Origin: an uncultured delta proteobacterium
Lineage (GTDB): Bacteria; Myxococcota_A; UBA9160; SZUA-336
Assembly: GCA_963704165.1 (NCBI GenBank)
Contig: CAVPHD010000006.1
Location: 1 to 64,000, forward strand
Reading direction: 5' to 3'
DNA: 64,000 nt
In this document: piece by piece, positions 53,962 to 63,125 of the stretch
Layout of the letters: the number at the start of each line of letters is the position of its first letter
How positions within the stretch are numbered: the first letter of the stretch is position 1
Made by a program: the position numbers and the translations under genes
Notes under the pieces: generated by a model
The model's database searches: none
Told to the model about the DNA's origin: nothing
The model's input: only the letters and a program-made list of their open reading frames with translations

Positions 53962-54810
53962 ATGGCTGACTCACCGCGAAGTGACGAGCGAATCATCGGC
54001 CCGGTGTCGGTAGAAGGCGCGGGAATCGCACCCGGTCGCGACCGGCTCGCGGGACGCCGGATCCTGGTCGTCGGCGCGGGCACGCAGGCCAGCCCCGAGC
54101 TCGACGCGCCGATCGGCAACGGGCGCGCGATCGCGCTGCTCGCCGCGCGGGAAGGCGCTTCGGTCGCGTGCGCGGACATCGATCCGAACGCGGCGAGAGA
54201 GACGCTCTCGCAGATCGAGAAGGAAGGGGGCCGCGGCTGCGTGATCGTCGGCGACGTCTCCGAACCTTCCGCCTGCGTTCGGATCGTCGCCGAGGCCGAG
54301 CACACGCTCGGCGGAGTCGACGGCTTGGTTCTGAACGTCGGCATCGCGGCGGGCGCACGGCTCGCCGGCACCGATGCCGAGGCCTGGGACCGGACCTTCG
54401 CGGTGAATCTGCGCGCGCACTTCCTGATCGCGCGCGAGCTCCTGCCCCGCCTGGCGCCCGGCGCCTCGATCGTCTTCATCAGCTCGATCGCCGCGCTCGG
54501 TCCGGGCTCGCGCCTGCCGTCGTACGACGCGTCGAAGGCCGGGCTCGCGGGGCTGATGCGCCACGTCGCGTTCGAGGGCGCGCGAAGCGGAGTCCGCGCG
54601 AACGTCGTACTCCCCGGACTGATCGACACGCCGCTCGGCCGCAGCGCGACGCGCGGCCGTCCGTCGCGCGCGCGCACGCCGGTTCCGCTCGGGCGCCAGG
54701 GGACGGGCTGGGAAGTCGCGCACGCCACGGTCTTCCTGCTCTCGGGCGAAGCGAGCTACATCACGGGCCAATCGCTCGTCGTGGACGGCGGACTCTCCGC
54801 GCTGACCTAG
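53962..54810 (+). CDS. SDR oxidoreductase
   Basis: VGAG..IGNGRA, NVG, YDASK, GWEVA; leaderless TATGAT-N6-ATG. Confidence 0.88.
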   Translation: MADSPRSDERIIGPVSVEGAGIAPGRDRLAGRRILVVGAGTQASPELDAPIGNGRAIALLAAREGASVACADIDPNAARETLSQIEKEGGRGCVIVGDVSEPSACVRIVAEAEHTLGGVDGLVLNVGIAAGARLAGTDAEAWDRTFAVNLRAHFLIARELLPRLAPGASIVFISSIAALGPGSRLPSYDASKAGLAGLMRHVAFEGARSGVRANVVLPGLIDTPLGRSATRGRPSRARTPVPLGRQGTGWEVAHATVFLLSGEASYITGQSLVVDGGLSALT

Positions 54811-56282
54811 CGCCGAGACGGCGCGTTCATGCGCGCGAGCCGCGGGTCGAGCTCCGGCTGAAGCGTCGACGGACGCGATGCGGCCTCGATCTCGACGAGC
54901 GCGTCGTCGAGATCGCGTCCGAGCTGGTCGAGGTCCGGCGCGAGCTCCCAGTCGCCGATCAGTCCCCAGCAGAGCTTGCCGTCGTAGCTGAGCGCGGCGA
55001 CGCCAAGACCCTGGCGCGCGAAGAGCGGCAGCTGCGGATGGATCTCGAGAACGCGCGCGCCGAGCAGGTAGAGCGGCTGCTGCGGCCCCGGCACCGTCGA
55101 GACGATCAGGTTGTAGGGATGCAGCCGCGTCGCGAGATCGACCCCGAGGCGCGTCAATGCGACCGATCCCGTTGCGTCGGCGAGGTTGCTGAGCAGCTCG
55201 ATGCCACGGGCCGCGTCGGTCTGCCTCAGCCGCAGCTTCTGTTCACGGATCTGCCGGAAGCGCTCGCGCGGGTCGGGCTCGTCGATGGGCAGCGAAACGA
55301 AAAGGGCCGAGACGTGGTTCGCTTCGTCGATCTCGCCCGACGTCCCGCGCCGATTCACGGGGATGCACACCTTGTAGTCGAGCTTCGCGAGCGGCACGCC
55401 GCGTCCGATCAGGTAGCTGCGGATCGCTCCCGCGACGAGCGCGAGCACGACGTCATTCAGCGTTCCGTCGAGCCGGTTCTTCAGCGCCGTCAGCCGTGCG
55501 AGCTCGGTGGTGCGGAGCGCCGCGCGTCGGTGCGGGCCGATACGCTCGTTGAAGGGCGTCTCCGCGGGTGGGAGCAGCGCGCCCGAGAGCGACGTCGCGA
55601 CCGCGCGGCCGCTCTCGACGAGGCCCGTGAGCGCCGCCCCGGGATCCCGCGCGACGGCCGCGGCCGCCCCGAGCAACCGGATCGGAAGCGCCAATCGCCG
55701 AACGAGCTCGTCGATGCCGAGCCGGAACGTGCCCGGATGCGCGCGTGCCTCGAAGTCGAGAACGCGTGAACCCTCGTGGACCTCGGGCGAGGGCGAGAGC
55801 AGCTTCGCGAGCACCCCCATTCCGCCGACGGCATCGACCATGCAGTGGTGAAGTTTGGAGATCATCGCGAATCGGTCCCCGGTGAGGGAGTCGACGATCC
55901 ACGTCTCCCAGAGCGGTTTCTCGCGATCGAGGTGCTGGGAGAGGATCCGACCGACGAGCGCCTCGAGCTGGGCGTCGGTTCCCGGGGTGGGCAACGCGGT
56001 GTGGCGCACGTGGTAGCCGAGGTTGAAGTGTTCGTCGTCCACCCAGATCGGCCGGCGCGTGATCGGCGTCCACGCCAGACGCTCCCGGTGGTGCGGCATG
56101 TCGTCGAGCGTCGCCTCGATGTGCGCGGCGATGCGATCGAAGTCGAGCGCGCCGTCCGCGCGCGCGAGCTTCGCCCGCTCGAAGATCGAGACCGCCGCCA
56201 CGTGCATCGGCGTGGCCCGGTGCTCGAAGTGGAGGAACCAGCGGTCCTTGGAGGAAAGGGGCTCGTAGCCCGACGTTCGCAT
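54807..56282 (-). CDS. Wax ester synthase/diacylglycerol acyltransferase (WS/DGAT)
   Basis: LS..D.WFL, TPMHVA, LDREKPLWE, KLHHCMVDA, GTLNDVVLA, NLIVSTVPGP. Confidence 0.92.
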   Translation of the reverse strand: MRTSGYEPLSSKDRWFLHFEHRATPMHVAAVSIFERAKLARADGALDFDRIAAHIEATLDDMPHHRERLAWTPITRRPIWVDDEHFNLGYHVRHTALPTPGTDAQLEALVGRILSQHLDREKPLWETWIVDSLTGDRFAMISKLHHCMVDAVGGMGVLAKLLSPSPEVHEGSRVLDFEARAHPGTFRLGIDELVRRLALPIRLLGAAAAVARDPGAALTGLVESGRAVATSLSGALLPPAETPFNERIGPHRRAALRTTELARLTALKNRLDGTLNDVVLALVAGAIRSYLIGRGVPLAKLDYKVCIPVNRRGTSGEIDEANHVSALFVSLPIDEPDPRERFRQIREQKLRLRQTDAARGIELLSNLADATGSVALTRLGVDLATRLHPYNLIVSTVPGPQQPLYLLGARVLEIHPQLPLFARQGLGVAALSYDGKLCWGLIGDWELAPDLDQLGRDLDDALVEIEAASRPSTLQPELDPRLARMNAPSRR

Positions 56283-56294
56283 GCCCGACGGGCG

Positions 56295-57437
56295 TCAGCC
56301 GGCGGCGTTTGCGGCGCTCACCGGCGCGATGCCCAGATCGTTCATCATCATCGTGAACTTGCTGCGCGGGATCCGATCCTCGAATCCGGCACGGCGCAGA
56401 CGGTGGAAGTACTCCTGCATCTGCTTCACCTGCAGGTCACCGACGATCTTCACGCCGTCTGCGATCTGGGCGGGTTTCGTGCCCTTGCCCGCGAGCACGA
56501 TCATGCACTCGGTGAGCGCGGCGTCGAACTGGCTGATCGTGACCGACTCCCCCTCGTCGAGCGCCGAGTGAAGCTGTTCCTTGCGCTCCGGCGTATGGTC
56601 GATGGTCCACTTCAGGTGCTGCAGGCCGTACGAGACGTGACGTGCCTCGTCCTGCATCACGAGCTGGAACATGCGCTTGTCCACGGGCGTCGGCGAAATG
56701 AACTCGCTGAAGCGGAACATCGTCAGGATGTTGCCCTCGGCCAGGAGGTGCATGAACGCCGAAGCGTCGCTGTAGGTGTCGCCGTCGAGGATCGCCTTGA
56801 GGGAGTGCTCGGCCTGCGGCAGCGCCTCCATCAGACCGACGCCGCCCGCGAGCGCCCGCTTTCGGAACACTTCGGCGTGTCGCGCCTCGTCCATCGCTTG
56901 CGTGGCGATGAAGTGCTTCACCTCGTGGAACTGGTTGTTCATCCGCCAGAGCCACTTCGCCGGCAGGTCGGTCGCGATCATCTCGACCTCGGTGAAGAAC
57001 GTGCAGAGCTGCGCGAATGCGACCTCGAGCTCCTCGCTGCGCTCGTACTTGTCGAGATCGCCCCAGGGAATGTCCGTCGTCGCGTCCCACTGGCGCGAGA
57101 CCGCTTCCTCCGTGAACGACGCCACCTTGTACGCCCAGACGTCGGACTTGCGGTTCAGCTCCGGCTCGAGATCGGCCTGGACCTTCGGGTCGAAGGCCGC
57201 GCCCCGCGGCACCGCGCCCCGCGGCCCGCGCGGAACCTCGGGGAGCTCGTCGTAGCCGTAGCTGCCCTTGTTCACGTCGAGGTAGGTGAACCCGCGCTTC
57301 GGGTTCTCCTGCGAGAATCGCAGCTTCTCGGTGCCGGCCTTCATCCAGCCGAGATCGAGGTTGCCCTTGCGGATGTCGCGCATGCGCAACGCGAGGTCGG
57401 AGTTGCGGCTCCAGTCGATCGGTCCGTAGTAGCTCAT
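56295..57437 (-). CDS. Ferritin-like diiron protein with complete ligand set (putative alpha subunit)
   Basis: TEVE..MDEARH..LAEG..QDEARH; RQWD..DIPW; GGGAGAG RBS. Confidence 0.85.
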   Translation of the reverse strand: MSYYGPIDWSRNSDLALRMRDIRKGNLDLGWMKAGTEKLRFSQENPKRGFTYLDVNKGSYGYDELPEVPRGPRGAVPRGAAFDPKVQADLEPELNRKSDVWAYKVASFTEEAVSRQWDATTDIPWGDLDKYERSEELEVAFAQLCTFFTEVEMIATDLPAKWLWRMNNQFHEVKHFIATQAMDEARHAEVFRKRALAGGVGLMEALPQAEHSLKAILDGDTYSDASAFMHLLAEGNILTMFRFSEFISPTPVDKRMFQLVMQDEARHVSYGLQHLKWTIDHTPERKEQLHSALDEGESVTISQFDAALTECMIVLAGKGTKPAQIADGVKIVGDLQVKQMQEYFHRLRRAGFEDRIPRSKFTMMMNDLGIAPVSAANAAG

Positions 57438-57456
57438 CGCTCTCCCCTTCCCCGGC

Positions 57457-58539
57457 TCAGCTGCGGAGCAGCCGCAGGAACTCCGGCAACGGGCTGCGCG
57501 AGCGGCGGTCGCCAAGACCCGCCGCCATGCAGCGCCTGAAGTATTCGTCGGTCGTCCGCTCGTAGAGGCCGGCGACGGGCTCGAATCCGCCCGAGATCAG
57601 CACGAGCGGCTCGATCATCTCGGGCGCGCCGAGCGCCCCGACGAGCGCGTTCTCGGACAGGTCGAGGTGGTTCGAGATCCGCTCGGCCTCGATCGGCCGC
57701 GCGTGCAGCAGGCCGCGGATGTGATCGACGCCGTAGGCGATGAAGCGCGTCGCATCCTGCGCGAGTCGAACGCCGAGGAACGAGTCCACCGCGTTGGTCG
57801 CGGTGTATTCGAGGTGACGTCCGATCGCCTGAATCCACGAGAAGAGCAGGAGGTTCATCGAGGCCGAGGCCTCGGGGTACGAGTCGGCGGTGAAGATCGA
57901 CTTCAGAAACGCACCGAACTCCGGACAATCGACCCCGAGCTGGCCGTCCCCCGCGAGCGCGCGTTTCCGGAACGCCTCGGAGATGCGCGCGGCGTCGTAC
58001 ATCTGCACGCACATCAGGTACTTGATCTCGTGGAACTCCTGGTTCATCCGGAACTCGTACGAAGCGGCCGTGTCGCAGGCGACGAATCCGGCCGAGACCA
58101 GATTCGTCGAGAGCTGGCGGATGGCGTGCGCGACCTGCTCGGAGTGACCCGGCTCGTCGAGCGCGGTCCAGGGCACGTCGTGCGCCGGCGCCCAGCGCCG
58201 GGACTTCGCCTCCTCGAAGAGGGTCGGTGCGACCTCGGCCCAGACATCGCTCTTTCGATTCAGGCGGTAGCCGAGCGACGGCAGGCCCGGGGGCAGGATC
58301 GCCCCGCGCGGCGCCATCGAGAAGTTGTGCCGCACGACCTCGGGGAGGTGATCCGGCGAGTACGCGCCGTGGTTGATGTCGGTGAGCGTCAGCCCCCGCG
58401 CGGGTTGGCTGGGCCGGAACGAGGCCCGCTCGCCGATCTTCTTCATCCACGACAGGTCGAGCTGGCCGGAGATCGTGCGGATCATCTTCGCGACGATCTC
58501 GGGATCCTGGCTGTAATCCTTGGGTGCGATGTAGGACAT
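57457..58539 (-). CDS. Ferritin-like paralog lacking iron ligands (putative beta subunit)
   Basis: Colinear with 56295-57437 (LNRKSDVWA, FHE.K, FRKRALAG) but VSAG/YDAARI/LFSW/QDATRF at the ligand positions. Confidence 0.8.
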   Translation of the reverse strand: MSYIAPKDYSQDPEIVAKMIRTISGQLDLSWMKKIGERASFRPSQPARGLTLTDINHGAYSPDHLPEVVRHNFSMAPRGAILPPGLPSLGYRLNRKSDVWAEVAPTLFEEAKSRRWAPAHDVPWTALDEPGHSEQVAHAIRQLSTNLVSAGFVACDTAASYEFRMNQEFHEIKYLMCVQMYDAARISEAFRKRALAGDGQLGVDCPEFGAFLKSIFTADSYPEASASMNLLLFSWIQAIGRHLEYTATNAVDSFLGVRLAQDATRFIAYGVDHIRGLLHARPIEAERISNHLDLSENALVGALGAPEMIEPLVLISGGFEPVAGLYERTTDEYFRRCMAAGLGDRRSRSPLPEFLRLLRS

Positions 58540-58547
58540 CGGTTCTC

Positions 58548-58970
58548 CTACGAGGCCTTCACTTCGAGATACCGCGCCTGGTCGAAGAACTCCTGGATCG
58601 ATGCCATGAAGCGGTAGAACTTGTCGTGCCCTTCGGCGTCGGCGGTTTCGACCCGGAGCAGGTCGCCGACGTGCGAGAGCGTGTTCAGGGTGTGCTTCGC
58701 GTCCGCGCCGCCGTGCTCGACGATCGCCTCGATCATCTCCTTCCAGATCGCCGGCGAACCGCTGAGGACGAAGTCGAGCCGCGCGGGATCTCCGCCCTCC
58801 TGGACGTGGACACACTCGTAGACCTCGAACCCGATCGTGTAGAGGTCCTTCCCGACCCGAACGCCGAAGCTCGTGTCGCAGTAGCCGAGCTTCTCGAATC
58901 GGACCTTGTCTTCCTTCGTGCGCTGCTGGAGCGCCTGAAAGAACTCGAGCGATGGGAAACGGATCGCCAT
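58548..58970 (-). CDS. Small SCP2-like protein
   Basis: FPS.EFF.AL, LGYCD..FGV, FE.YEC..V, DFVLSG...WKEM; GGAGG RBS. Confidence 0.6.
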   Translation of the reverse strand: MAIRFPSLEFFQALQQRTKEDKVRFEKLGYCDTSFGVRVGKDLYTIGFEVYECVHVQEGGDPARLDFVLSGSPAIWKEMIEAIVEHGGADAKHTLNTLSHVGDLLRVETADAEGHDKFYRFMASIQEFFDQARYLEVKAS

Positions 58971-59006
58971 GACATCCTCCGCGCGGGTCTAGAACGATTT
59001 TACGCC

Positions 59007-59022
59007 AGCAAGGTCCGTTCCC
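59007..59022 (-). promoter_or_regulatory. Putative sigma54 (-24/-12) promoter
   Basis: gGGAACGgaccTTGCT compared with consensus TGGCACG-N4-TTGCW; GG-N10-GC spacing is exact. Confidence 0.5.
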
Positions 59023-59074: not shown

Positions 59075-59845
59075 TCAGCTCCCGAAGGAGCCGTGGCGCC
59101 CGGCCCCTCGCGCGAATCGCGAAGCCCCCTCGAGCGTCTCGCCCGAGGCGATCACCTCGAGCCCGAGGCGCGTCTCGAGGCGAAGCGCATCGTCCTGCGA
59201 GAGCGGCCACTGCTGATAGGAGGAGAGCCGGTCGCTGCGCAGGCATCGCTGCGGGAACGCGGCGAGCTGGCGCGCGAGCTCGATCGCTTCCGGCAGGGCG
59301 CGGCCCGGATCGACCAGCCGGTTCGCGAGCCCCATCATGCGCGCCTCTTCACCCGAGACGCCGCGGCCGGTCAGGATCAGATCGAGCGCGTGGGAGTGGC
59401 CGATCATGCGGGCGAGGCGAATCGTTCCGCCGTCGATCAGCGGCACGCCCCAACGGCGGCAGAAGACGCCGAAGACCGCGTCGCGCGCGGCCACGCGCAG
59501 GTCGCACCAGATGGCGAGCTCGAGGCCGCCGGCGACCGCGTAGCCCTCGACCGCGGCGATCACCGGCTTGCCGAGCAGCATGCGCGACGGCCCCATCGGA
59601 CCGTCGCCGTCGGGGCTGACGCGATTCCCGCGCCCCTCCGAGACGCCCTTCAGATCGGCACCGGCGCAGAAGGTCCCCTTCGCTCCGGTGAGAACCGCCA
59701 CCGACGATGATTCGTCCGCGTCGAAGCGCCGGAACGCCTCGGCGAGCGCCGATGCGGTCGGACCGTCCACCGCGTTGCGCGCGGCCGGCCGGTCGATCGT
59801 CACGATCGCGACCGGCCCGTCGGTCTCGTAGCTGACTTCCGCCAT
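59075..59845 (-). CDS. Enoyl-CoA hydratase/crotonase
   Basis: FCAGADLK, KPVIAAVEGYAVAGGLELA, RRWGVPLIDGG. Confidence 0.93.
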   Translation of the reverse strand: MAEVSYETDGPVAIVTIDRPAARNAVDGPTASALAEAFRRFDADESSSVAVLTGAKGTFCAGADLKGVSEGRGNRVSPDGDGPMGPSRMLLGKPVIAAVEGYAVAGGLELAIWCDLRVAARDAVFGVFCRRWGVPLIDGGTIRLARMIGHSHALDLILTGRGVSGEEARMMGLANRLVDPGRALPEAIELARQLAAFPQRCLRSDRLSSYQQWPLSQDDALRLETRLGLEVIASGETLEGASRFARGAGRHGSFGS

Positions 59846-59912: not shown

Positions 59913-62291
59913 ATGGATGCCCCGATCCTGTCACTTCCTCCGACCGGGCTCGTCGCCATCCTGGTCTCGCTCACGTACCTCGCCCTCGCGGTCGTGCGCA
60001 TTCGGCCGGAATGGGTGGTGGACCACGCGCGCGCCGTGCTCGGCGTGCTCGCGGCGATCTCGCTCGTCGCCGCCGTCGCGCTCGTCGATCTGCGCACGCT
60101 CGAGCCGCGCGTCCGCCTCGACGCCTCCGAAGAGCCGCTGATGCTCCGCCACGATCCGGCGCGGGCGGTCTACGCCGAGGCCATCCGCACGTTCGGCAAC
60201 GACGACATCTACGTGATCGCGATGCTCACCGACGACGTCTTCACGGAGGCCGATCTCGGAGCGCTGCGTCGGATCAGCCACGCGGTCCTGAAGCTTCCAG
60301 GCGTGCGGCGCGCCGAGAGCCTGGTCGACATCCCGAGCTATCGCTGGGATCCGGAGAAGCTCTGGCTCGACGTCTCGGACTTCATCGACGACATCCCCTC
60401 CGAACCCGCGAGGCTCGTGGATCTGCGCCGGCGCGCGCTCGCCGATCCGATCTATCCGAAGCTGGTCGTGTCGCGCGACGGCTCGGCCGCCGCGATCAAC
60501 CTGTCCTTCCACGAGATCGGCGACCGGGCGTTCGTCGATCTCGGGCTCGACGACGCGATTCGCGCGATCGCGCAGGCGGAGACGGCCCCCGGCCGCGAGT
60601 TCCGTTTCGCGGGACGCCCCCACGTGAAGTCGCGCGCCGCGCTGATCATGGCGCGGGATCTCTCGCTCCTGATCCCGCTCGCGGTCCTCGTCGCGGCGTT
60701 GGTGGTCTTCCTGACGACGGGCTCCGTGCGCGGGGTGTTCTCGCCGCTGCTCGCGTGCCTGACGTCGGTGCTCTGGACGTTCGGCCTGCTCGCGTTCGCC
60801 GGGCTCTCGATCAACCTGATCACGATCGTGCTCGGCCCGATCCTGATCACGCTCGGCGGGCTGTACGGCGTGCACATCATCGCGCGCTGGGAGCAGGAAC
60901 GAGAGCACGTGGACAACGCGCGCGATGCCGCGCTCGCGACGCTCCGCGACGTCTTCGTTCCGGTCGTCCTGTCGGGCGTCACGACCAGTGCGGGATTCGC
61001 CGCGCTCGCTCCCGGTGGCATTCCGGGCATCGAGGAGCTCGGCACGTTCGCGCTCTTCGGAACGTCGGTGCTGACGCTGATCTCGATCACCGGGATCCCC
61101 GCCGCGCTCGCGCTGCTTCCGCACCGAAAGGGCGCGAGCGGGACGACGCGCTCCGGTGCGACCTTCGGACGAAGACTCGACGACGGGCTCGCCCGGCTCG
61201 CCGTCGCCTGCTGCACGCACGCGACTCCGATTCTGATCGCTTGGGGCGTGATGACGGCGATCGGGATCGCCGCGCTGCCGCGAATCGTGATCGACACCGA
61301 CTACCTGACCTACTTCGCCGAGAGCTCGCAGGTCCGACGCGACTTCGCGTCGGTCAACGAGCGTCTGATCGGACCGGTGCCGCTCTACGTCGAGCTGATC
61401 GGCGAGATCGAGGGCACGTTTCGGGAGCCCGAGAACCTGCGCCGGATCGAGGCGCTTCAACGCGAGATCGAGGCGCTTCCCGGAGTGGCCGCGACGATCT
61501 CGATGGTGGACCCGCTTCGGCTCCTGAATCGCGCGCTCGAGCGCGGCGATCCCGACGAGGAGCGCATCCCGGACACGCGCGAAGAGGTCAGCGATCTCGT
61601 CTTCATGGTTCCGAAGGCGGAGCTGCGCCGCTTCGCGAATTCGAACCACAGCGAAGCGAACGTGATCGTGCGCACGGGCGAGCTCGGCTCGCGCGCGGTG
61701 CGAACATTGGTCGGACGGATCGAGGACGTCGTCGCGCGGCTCGAGCTCGAGCCCGGGCTGCGTGTCGAGGTGACCGGCAATGCGGTCGTGCTGAACCGCA
61801 GCGCCGATTCGCTCTCGGGAAACCAGATCGCGAGCATCGCGCTCGCGAGCGCGACCATCTTCGCCCTCGTCTACGGGGTCTTCCGCTCGTTGCGCGTCAG
61901 CCTGCTGGTGATGATTCCGAACCTTGCGCCGGTGATCCTGTTCTTCGGCTTGCTCGGGCTCGGGCTCGCCCCGCTCTCTCTGCCGACGAGCATGATCGGA
62001 TGCGTCGTGCTCGGAGTCGCGGTGGACGACACGGTCCATGTGCTGGTGTCGTACCGGCGCATGCGCGAGCGGGGATCGTCGCCCGAGGACGCGGTGCTCG
62101 AGACCCTGCGTCGGGTCGGCCGGCCGGTCGTGATCTCCTCGCTGATGCTGGTCGCGGGGTTCCTGACGATCATGATCTCGGGCTTCGCGACGATCGTCGA
62201 GTTCGGCTACCTAACGGCGCTCACGATGGCGATCTGCCTCTGCGCCGATCTGATCATGCTGCCGGCGCTACTCGTTCGCGCTCGCGCGTAG
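59913..62291 (+). CDS. MMPL/RND family exporter
   Basis: Two TM-loop-TM repeats; TTSAGFAAL, GVAVDDTVH, GRPVVISSL. Confidence 0.88.
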   Translation: MDAPILSLPPTGLVAILVSLTYLALAVVRIRPEWVVDHARAVLGVLAAISLVAAVALVDLRTLEPRVRLDASEEPLMLRHDPARAVYAEAIRTFGNDDIYVIAMLTDDVFTEADLGALRRISHAVLKLPGVRRAESLVDIPSYRWDPEKLWLDVSDFIDDIPSEPARLVDLRRRALADPIYPKLVVSRDGSAAAINLSFHEIGDRAFVDLGLDDAIRAIAQAETAPGREFRFAGRPHVKSRAALIMARDLSLLIPLAVLVAALVVFLTTGSVRGVFSPLLACLTSVLWTFGLLAFAGLSINLITIVLGPILITLGGLYGVHIIARWEQEREHVDNARDAALATLRDVFVPVVLSGVTTSAGFAALAPGGIPGIEELGTFALFGTSVLTLISITGIPAALALLPHRKGASGTTRSGATFGRRLDDGLARLAVACCTHATPILIAWGVMTAIGIAALPRIVIDTDYLTYFAESSQVRRDFASVNERLIGPVPLYVELIGEIEGTFREPENLRRIEALQREIEALPGVAATISMVDPLRLLNRALERGDPDEERIPDTREEVSDLVFMVPKAELRRFANSNHSEANVIVRTGELGSRAVRTLVGRIEDVVARLELEPGLRVEVTGNAVVLNRSADSLSGNQIASIALASATIFALVYGVFRSLRVSLLVMIPNLAPVILFFGLLGLGLAPLSLPTSMIGCVVLGVAVDDTVHVLVSYRRMRERGSSPEDAVLETLRRVGRPVVISSLMLVAGFLTIMISGFATIVEFGYLTALTMAICLCADLIMLPALLVRARA

Positions 62292-63125
62292 CGCGTCCAC
62301 CGATTTCAGGCGCTGGGGCGCGAAGATCGAATCCTCGATCACCGGGTTGTCGACCACACGATCGATCTCGAGCACGGACTTCGTCTTCTCGGACAGGTCG
62401 TACATCGTGCTCTCGAGCGGAATCCAGACGCCGGAGTACGGCTTGATCTTCCCGCGCGGAATCTCGAGCTGCTTCACTTCGACGCCCGCTTCGTCCCAGT
62501 GTCGGGTGCGCAGCGGGACGTCGTAGTCCTTGTCGACGTAGAGCAGGCTCCGAGCGTAGGCCGGGTCCGTCTCGGGTCGGTGGTTCACGTCCACGACCCA
62601 GACGGGGACGCCCTGGACCTCTTCGTCGGGAAGACGTTCGTAGGTCGCGTCGTCGATGTGACTGACCACGGCCAAGTCGTCGAGGCTGAAGTCACTGCCG
62701 AAGATCGACTCCTTCGCGGGCGCGATCCGCATCACACGCTCTCGCTTGCGCGAATAGTGGAACCCCTCGTCCTCGGTGCCCTTCCGCTCGATGAACAGGT
62801 ACGCGGTGTCGCGTTTGTCGTAGGGCTCGGTGAACTTCATGATCGTCTTCGAGATGACCGTGCCCTTGGGCGCGGACTCGGACGTGCGAAGATCCTTGAA
62901 ACGCGACCAGAACTTCAGGTTCTGGACGCTCCCGCCGGGATCGGTCGAAGACATCCGATGCTCGAAGTACGCCGTCTCGAGCTTGTTGTCGAGAACGCGT
63001 TGGTAGATCGCGCGCCCGTCGAGCCCGTCGGTCCCGGGCAAGGCATCGTCGGCGGCGCGCGACGTCGGAGCGACGAGCGGGAGAGACAGGAAGAGCAGGA
63101 GGATCCGGGCGTTCCGCACTCGCAT
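62268..63125 (-). CDS. LolA-like outer membrane lipoprotein-sorting protein
   Basis: Signal peptide; KF.EP.D.R.TAYL, RV.RI....ESIFGSDFSLDD, G.WIP. Confidence 0.8.
   Translation of the reverse strand: MRVRNARILLLFLSLPLVAPTSRAADDALPGTDGLDGRAIYQRVLDNKLETAYFEHRMSSTDPGGSVQNLKFWSRFKDLRTSESAPKGTVISKTIMKFTEPYDKRDTAYLFIERKGTEDEGFHYSRKRERVMRIAPAKESIFGSDFSLDDLAVVSHIDDATYERLPDEEVQGVPVWVVDVNHRPETDPAYARSLLYVDKDYDVPLRTRHWDEAGVEVKQLEIPRGKIKPYSGVWIPLESTMYDLSEKTKSVLEIDRVVDNPVIEDSIFAPQRLKSVDALRASANE

Follow-up and report, generated by a model that had tools for sequence, protein, structure and literature searches.

A conserved trio of genes

Within a 64,000-nucleotide stretch of an uncultured delta proteobacterium (GTDB Myxococcota_A; UBA9160; SZUA-336; contig CAVPHD010000006.1 of assembly GCA_963704165.1), hereafter the window, we identified three genes that form a conserved unit: alpha, a ferritin-like protein with an intact dimetal ligand set (57437-56295, minus strand, 380 amino acids (aa)); beta, a ferritin-like paralog without any of the six metal ligands (58539-57457, minus strand, 360 aa); and S, a probable SCP2-fold protein (58970-58548, minus strand, 140 aa), each with an ATG start. 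S, beta and alpha constitute a separable module, and we consider it reasonably probable, judging from the sequences, that they encode a dimetal oxygenase of the carboxylate-bridged, O2-activating kind, which would act on a hydrophobic substrate and be fed by a [4Fe-4S] ferredoxin. The first-pass annotation of this DNA had described four co-oriented genes, the fourth encoding a WS/DGAT acyltransferase, separated by 8, 19 and 12 nucleotides (nt), and this layout was matched exactly by the open reading frame (ORF) coordinates, all on the minus strand; as it had also stated, neither a reductase nor a ferredoxin gene lies among the operon genes of the window. The conserved unit, however, is the trio of S, beta and alpha rather than all four genes.

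Searching GTDB genomes with alpha yielded 55 loci, labelled mostly as Myxococcota or Deltaproteobacteria metagenome-assembled genomes, with some Binatia and one Pseudomonadales. Beta adjoined alpha in 49 of these, the remaining six carrying alpha only in part, at the end of a contig, and the gene-neighbourhood check proposed earlier therefore found the ligand-less gene kept beside the intact one. S was adjacent in 46 of the 49 pair loci; two others were cut by the contig start, and the last (L002) carries its S on another contig. Two gene orders were found, S-beta-alpha as in the window and S-alpha-beta, the latter in most cases preceded by a TetR gene in the same orientation. Of 121 genomes sampled from the window's class, 45 had a family member, and beta lay beside 41 of 42 full-length alphas, the last of which stands at a contig end; this set overlaps the 55-locus scan. 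Members were likewise found in 48 of 101 Binatia genomes, with beta adjacent to 23 of the 26 pair-type alphas and further away for three, and in 36 of 101 genomes of the gammaproteobacterial family sampled. The wider phylum sample gave matches in 15 of 151 genomes, those outside the window's class (seven genomes) being distant single matches only. Further members are labelled Dehalococcoidia and Acidimicrobiia, and the family as a whole comprised 1,439 proteins at E ≤ 0.001 among 7,999 candidates scored, falling into 163 clusters (50% identity, E ≤ 1e-30). A search of a plasmid collection gave a single weak partial match.

The window's genome (G000) holds three family loci: this trio, an S-alpha-beta copy on contig C2 and a single-subunit copy on contig C3. 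The C2 copy (L068; G000:C2:55653-58371, minus strand) reads TetR, S, alpha, beta, and its products are 59% (alpha), 44% (beta) and 50% (S) identical to those of the window. More distant ferritin-like genes of the same genome were noted at G000:C1:211827-212144, C4:324457-324846, C11:228806-230196 and C11:157350-157751, and contig C11 has a tandem pair. Downstream of beta in one Binatia group (L175-L181) lie genes for a Gfo/Idh/MocA oxidoreductase, a TetR regulator and an AurF-like ferritin-fold protein of about 333 aa.

An intact dimetal ligand set in a family without a named model

The carboxylate-diiron ligand pattern that had been read in one of the two ferritin-like proteins is intact in alpha, whose motifs TEVE (149-152), DEARH (183-187), LAEG (232-235) and DEARH (263-267) supply six predicted metal ligands, E152, E184, H187, E234, E264 and H267, encoded at 56637..56984 on the minus strand. 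Across 42 diverse intact relatives, E184, H187, E234 and H267 were invariant and E152 and E264 at least 90% conserved. E150, which does not reach 90% conservation in these relatives, was dropped as a candidate first ligand, making E152 the most likely one. Alpha therefore carries the E / ExxH / E / ExxH set that defines the ferritin-like carboxylate-dimetal superfamily, and its model is a helical bundle with ferritin-like proteins as top matches, in keeping with the four-helix bundle of that superfamily. One alpha of the window's type (L032:7001-8137) reads QARAAARH instead of QAMDEARH and has lost D183 and E184, through either an assembly error or inactivation of the copy.

Beyond this superfamily, alpha falls far below every named model. 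Pfam returned only sub-threshold ferritin-like matches (DUF455, Ribonuc_red_sm and AurF), with AurF (PF11583) at 15.5 bits against a gathering cut-off of 29.6, and the NCBIfam R2lox models scored 29.9 bits against a cut-off of 194 (NF006200) and 13.2 against 315 (NF006202). Neither PF02332, the hydroxylase model of the soluble diiron monooxygenases (sDIMOs), nor PF05138 and the NCBIfam Paa/Box models matched alpha or beta at E ≤ 1, and the Paa/Box models matched none of 72 family members at E ≤ 0.01. The first-pass annotation, which had not recognised the pair as an sDIMO or as PaaA/PaaC, was borne out, with no orthology to either. A weak match to an R2lox model was present in all 72 members scanned; the homology to R2lox was detectable over alpha residues of about 99-292, and PF11583 (AurF) was assigned to 12-50% of members in the Atlas clusters of the family. 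Profile searches of the Protein Data Bank (PDB) placed a VlmB homolog first (6d9f/8wvr, E 1.4e-13), followed by R2lox proteins (E about 7e-9), and all matches at E < 0.01 were ferritin-like dimetal oxidases apart from one designed helix bundle; MmoX and phenol hydroxylase gave E 0.46-0.62. The AlphaFold2 model of alpha was weak (predicted local distance difference test score (pLDDT) 57, 36-row alignment), and Foldseek searches with it placed VlmB, ADO, R2lox, toluene monooxygenase and PaaAC at the top, with none of them reaching E ≤ 0.001. By these profile scores, the nearest solved relatives of the family are VlmB and R2lox. No description of the family was found in the literature searched, a search that had subscription journals and supplements outside its reach. 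The family is real, conserved and uncharacterised, and it has no named model; the heteromeric design would be familiar to a specialist, the family itself would not.

A conserved partner without metal ligands

Alpha and beta align end to end with 130 of 362 positions identical (36%, E 2e-72), as had been claimed, and the first-pass annotation was also correct in stating that every ligand is replaced in the second paralog, since VSAG, DAARI, LFSW and DATRF occupy the matching beta positions. Pfam returned nothing useful for beta or S. All six ligands are absent from every one of 38 betas of the window's type. Among 23 Binatia betas, E184 is kept in 10, H187 in 15 and E152 and H267 in one each, with E234 and E264 kept in none. 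Ligand loss in beta is graded, and on the residues present no beta is predicted to be able to complete a metal site.

If beta were simply a decaying duplicate, as had been named as a way in which the pair could fail, its faster divergence would be in keeping with that: among the closest pairs of loci, non-synonymous differences accumulate about two to six times faster in beta than in alpha. This explanation has practically no probability left, however, and we rejected it on the open frames, conserved positions and codon differences. The beta reading frame is full-length and open in 48 of the 49 loci, the remaining one (L023) being cut by the contig; 63 positions are at least 95% conserved across 61 betas; and beta is retained across two bacterial classes. 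Synonymous codon differences exceeded non-synonymous ones for beta in all 25 closest locus pairs listed, which are not independent of one another; in one example the counts were 57 against 21 for beta and 41 against 6 for alpha. Formal pairwise ratios of non-synonymous to synonymous rates (1,432 pairs; medians 0.43 for alpha, 0.52 for beta and 0.43 for S) were discarded in favour of these raw counts, as the GC-rich genes show saturation at their synonymous sites. The best-kept beta residues lie in an N-terminal arm (residues 49-124) and at non-ligand helix positions common to alpha. In R2-like proteins, the dimer contact is formed by this arm region. Beta, as its codon pattern indicates, is a conserved pseudo-subunit under purifying selection.

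Repeated origin of the ligand-less partner

A tree was built from 68 rows picked to span the clades of a 107-row set and additional relatives. The alpha and beta clades of the window's type are sisters (100/99) with mirrored branching, and the pairwise distances within the two are closely correlated (r = 0.96). A second intact/degenerate sister pair (100/99) unites loci of the gammaproteobacterial family with proteins of clusters labelled Chloroflexota, the latter represented by sequences only. All 17 gammaproteobacterial pair loci (L216-L232) read alpha', degenerate copy, S; in 15 of the 17 a second, diverged S follows, and a zinc-ribbon gene (PF09723) is likewise present in 15. That S was duplicated in parallel suggests a basic unit made up of a single ferritin-like chain and a single S. 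A CoA-transferase III gene was also seen in the fetched flanks of about half of L216-L232. A single clade for all 26 degenerate rows of the two groups was rejected by the approximately unbiased test (p 0.0147; LG+G4 only, and chosen after the tree was seen). A further locus, L153:3770-7228 (minus strand), carries ferredoxin, alpha, degenerate copy and S in one run and falls in another clade on a long branch; its degenerate copy has kept both histidines and lost the glutamates. On this topology the ligand-less partner is estimated to have arisen at least twice in the family, and L153 probably represents a third independent origin.

These trees bear on the role of beta, which might instead be a separate ligand-binding pseudoenzyme, such as a sensor, chaperone or carrier, with alpha a homo-oligomer working with S. 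Beta lies away from alpha in three of 26 Binatia genomes, and many relatives have alpha and S without beta, which means that beta is not needed family-wide. Alpha of the pair clade is, however, practically never found without beta, the two trees mirror each other, and the repeated, independent appearance of a dead copy beside a live one fits the drift of a homodimer into a heterodimer. We therefore regard a separate pseudoenzyme as quite improbable and retain the heteromeric module of S, beta and alpha.

The small companion protein and a candidate electron donor

The description of S as an SCP2-like subunit stood in part: profiles give it weak support, and Pfam does not match it to SCP2 (PF02036 matched neither S nor any of 38 S members at E ≤ 0.1). 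The top PDB profile match of S was the Thermus SCP2 protein 2cx7 (E 0.032), and alignment of the S profile to 13 SCP2 domains with hhalign gave probabilities of 37.5-45.5%, against at most 1.2% in 30 column shuffles. In one Atlas cluster of S, SCP2 was assigned to 13% of members. The AlphaFold2 model of S was weak (single sequence, pLDDT 58), and fold searches with it gave nothing usable. On the profile matches, S is a probable SCP2-fold protein. An MmoB-like coupling protein was considered for S and dropped for lack of a Pfam match. Complex prediction for alpha, beta and S, with S as the scored partner, gave a median of 0.49, and the control with alpha replaced gave 0.80, a result that speaks neither for nor against binding.

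The single-subunit copy on C3 of the window's genome (L067:6607-9266; about 195600-198270) consists of a divergent TetR gene, alpha, S and a 93-aa 2[4Fe-4S] ferredoxin. A metagenome scan with this copy yielded 73 loci, many on short contigs, or 74 with C3 itself. S was present in 55 of the 74 and the ferredoxin family (Pfam Fer4) in 45, and no beta was found among them. Where at least 330 nt were available downstream of S, the ferredoxin came immediately next in 42 of the 43 single-subunit loci. In other single-subunit clades, S occurs without a ferredoxin. Around pairs of the window's type, a scan that sees cysteine motifs only found any Fe-S-motif ORF in five of 58 loci, one of which is C3. 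A divergent ferredoxin gene lies upstream in eight of the 26 Binatia pair regions, which may be lineage synteny. The window's genome also encodes three heme-copper oxidase-family subunit I proteins, in keeping with the use of O2.

Several outlying ferritin-like genes were noted during these scans. In a distant clade (L150:3793-7007; L210-L212) the ferritin-like protein has an N-terminal TusA-like extension and no S beside it, and its gene sits behind genes for an acyl-CoA dehydrogenase and a phosphonate-binding-type protein. Further genes of ferritin-like type that score weakly against AurF, ADO or PaaA/PaaC (L149:142-1832 and L148:7689-8654) lie near single-subunit members in which the first ligand motif is MGE.

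Proposed function and comparison with known systems

The claim of a ferritin-like dimetal enzyme that is uncharacterised, has a conserved paralog lacking the ligands and is accompanied by an SCP2-like protein is supported by the predicted proteins and their neighbourhoods. In the mechanism we propose, alpha would assemble a carboxylate-bridged metal pair, Fe/Fe or Mn/Fe, and beta would act as its structural partner in an alpha-beta heterodimer that arose from an ancestral homodimer. S would dock onto the enzyme and pass it a hydrophobic substrate, presumably a lipid-like molecule or an acyl-CoA. Two electrons per turn would come from a [4Fe-4S] ferredoxin encoded elsewhere, for which the gene at G000:C3 is a candidate; the reduced dimetal site would then bind O2 and insert one oxygen atom, by hydroxylation or epoxidation, in what may be the entry step of catabolism.

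Several points weigh against this proposal. No substrate-defining gene accompanies the trio: the most frequent neighbour families were TetR regulators (14 of 58 loci) and enoyl-CoA hydratases (nine), with no other in more than seven. In the 58 loci, pairs of the window's type have no Fe-S-motif gene running in the same orientation, so that the electron donor of the window's pair is inferred from its paralogs. The SCP2 identity of S relies on weak profile scores with nothing from Pfam, and the invariant polar residues of S (D116, R120, Q126 and W76) are more like those of an interface subunit than of a generic lipid carrier. Finally, the top PDB relative, VlmB, is an N-oxygenase and not a C-H hydroxylase.

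The last point raises the alternative of a VlmB/AurF-type N-oxygenase acting on a lipophilic amine, hydroxylamine or hydrazine. The VlmB homolog leads both the profile and the Foldseek rankings, the ligand spacing is the same, AurF is assigned to a share of the Atlas cluster members as given above, and VlmB is reported to convert a hydrazine to an azoxy product and to accept various aliphatic chains (PMC11705231). The VlmB match nevertheless covers the helical core only, the AurF score stays below its cut-off, and the neighbours include no recurrent VlmO-, VlmA- or other biosynthetic family, so a biosynthetic cluster context is missing. Unlike the family described here, VlmB is presented without partner subunits in the accessible part of PMC11705231. 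We consider N-oxygenation distinctly unlikely.

A closer competitor would be the same three-protein assembly working as an R2lox-like Mn/Fe or Fe/Fe oxidase that desaturates, deformylates or cleaves a C-C bond of a fatty substrate. The weak R2lox match runs through all members scanned, R2lox and ADO rank with the closest folds, and F191 is invariant. This residue would stand where class Ia proteins carry their radical tyrosine, a replacement also present in R2lox. The two groups also share the ferritin-like fold with its E / ExxH / E / ExxH set and, as neighbours, ferredoxin and sterol-carrier genes, with which haloarchaeal R2lox genes are reported to cluster (PMC9314684). A long-chain hydrophobic substrate has been proposed for R2lox, with alkane loss seen with crude GkR2loxI, whose ether cross-link joins Tyr162 and Val72 (PMC10867098). 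The present family lacks this Tyr-Val pair, as the tyrosine position, five residues before E234, is M229 in alpha and Met, Leu or another non-Tyr residue in relatives; its R2lox score is far below the cut-off; it has its own N-terminal arm of about 100 residues; and it has a conserved ligand-less paralog, a feature not described for R2lox in the available portions of PMC9314684 and PMC10867098. We judge R2lox-like chemistry unlikely, while recognizing that sequence cannot separate it from oxygen insertion at carbon, the reaction we favour.

In its subunit design the module resembles two further systems. Like the phenylacetyl-CoA epoxidase PaaABC(E), it combines a catalytic ferritin-like subunit, a metal-free paralog and a small third subunit (PaaA, PaaC and PaaB, respectively), and PaaC is described as the structural partner of PaaA (PMC4498308). 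PaaA and PaaC are, however, 17% identical compared with 36% for alpha and beta; the small subunit here is SCP2-like and not PaaB; and neither PaaE nor PaaD nor genes of the paa/box pathways are recurrent near the family. BoxB, of the benzoyl-CoA epoxidase BoxAB, is for its part fed transiently by BoxA, a reductase with two [4Fe-4S] clusters (PMC4498308). The sDIMOs (soluble methane monooxygenase (sMMO), toluene monooxygenase (TMO) and phenol hydroxylase) likewise pair a diiron alpha with an iron-free beta paralog, a likeness of design only, with separate origins. The subunits here are 360-380 aa long, PF02332 does not match, and the profile E-value to MmoX is about 0.5. Whereas sDIMOs need a hydroxylase and a reductase as well as a coupling protein (PMC11825192), no reductase or coupling-protein gene was found in the window operon and no such family recurs in the 58 loci. 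In design the module resembles PaaABC or the sDIMO hydroxylases, and in its parts the haloarchaeal R2lox clusters, with the scores and gene contexts placing the family outside each of these systems.

It is possible, though we stop short of calling it probable, that the family represents an undescribed class of multicomponent dimetal oxygenases, found widely among uncultured aerobic heterotrophs in soil and sea, in which a ferritin-like subunit bound to an SCP2-fold subunit would be the unit and a 2[4Fe-4S] ferredoxin would feed it, and which would have passed from homomer to catalytic-plus-dead heteromer two or three times, once with the SCP2 subunit duplicated. If so, it would offer a new way into the breakdown of a recalcitrant lipid, steroid or terpenoid and a living replay of the origin of sMMO alpha/beta and PaaA/PaaC. 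The family is common in lineages that are believed to recycle hydrophobic carbon. The coexistence of single-subunit forms, half-degenerate Binatia forms and fully degenerate betas provides a test case for the evolution of iron-free beta subunits, and new dimetal oxygenases are wanted as C-H activation catalysts. It also becomes testable whether the missing partners that have been proposed to deliver substrate to R2lox-like enzymes (PMC9314684) are SCP2-fold proteins.

The WS/DGAT gene and other neighbours

The fourth gene of the run (56282-54807, minus strand, 491 aa, ATG start) encodes a WS/DGAT acyltransferase, as previously assigned, with 383.5 bits to TIGR02946 (cut-off 309.95) and the motif HHCMVDA, a variant of HHxxxDG; its ortholog in G018, a same-genus genome, has HHCMVDG, and HHCMVDA is a local variant. 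The first-pass annotation had raised, as a possible extra step, esterification of the enzyme's product by WS/DGAT; all four genes would then serve one pathway, with a hydroxy-lipid formed by the oxygenase and esterified by WS/DGAT. The gap between alpha and WS/DGAT is only 12 nt, which makes read-through transcription plausible, and in L207 a WS/DGAT-like gene stands ahead of a single-subunit alpha. This proposal did not hold up, however, and we regard it as very improbable. WS/DGAT was found in the fetched flanks of four of the 55 related loci, always on the opposite strand, and co-oriented in none; eight close loci compared at the DNA level have nothing but the module in common with the window, and for the five loci close to it at the same-genus level the trio is likewise all that is shared. 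The closest ortholog (75% identical) lies in G018 (96% complete) without the trio: the order SDR, WS/DGAT, enoyl-CoA hydratase, MMPL is that of the window, with WS/DGAT 84 nt from the hydratase gene, and the only family member of G018 is of the single-subunit type. The 2.7-kb trio was therefore gained in the window's genome or lost in G018 as a block. WS/DGAT genes are multi-copy (28 of 31 genomes at E ≤ 1e-90), so that proximity to the trio is expected by chance. WS/DGAT is an incidental neighbour and not part of the module. The 0/55 co-orientation and the G018 synteny largely refute the coupled pathway.

A purine-rich stretch lies 5' of the ATG in S, beta and alpha, with none obvious for WS/DGAT, and a promoter and terminator scan at the locus found no sites. 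On the upstream flank, an enoyl-CoA hydratase-family gene (59075..59845, minus strand) lies 104 nt from S. Upstream of this gene, positions 59913-63125 encode an MMPL/RND-family membrane protein and, convergently, a LolA-like (DUF1329-like) protein; the MMPL gene is syntenic in G018.

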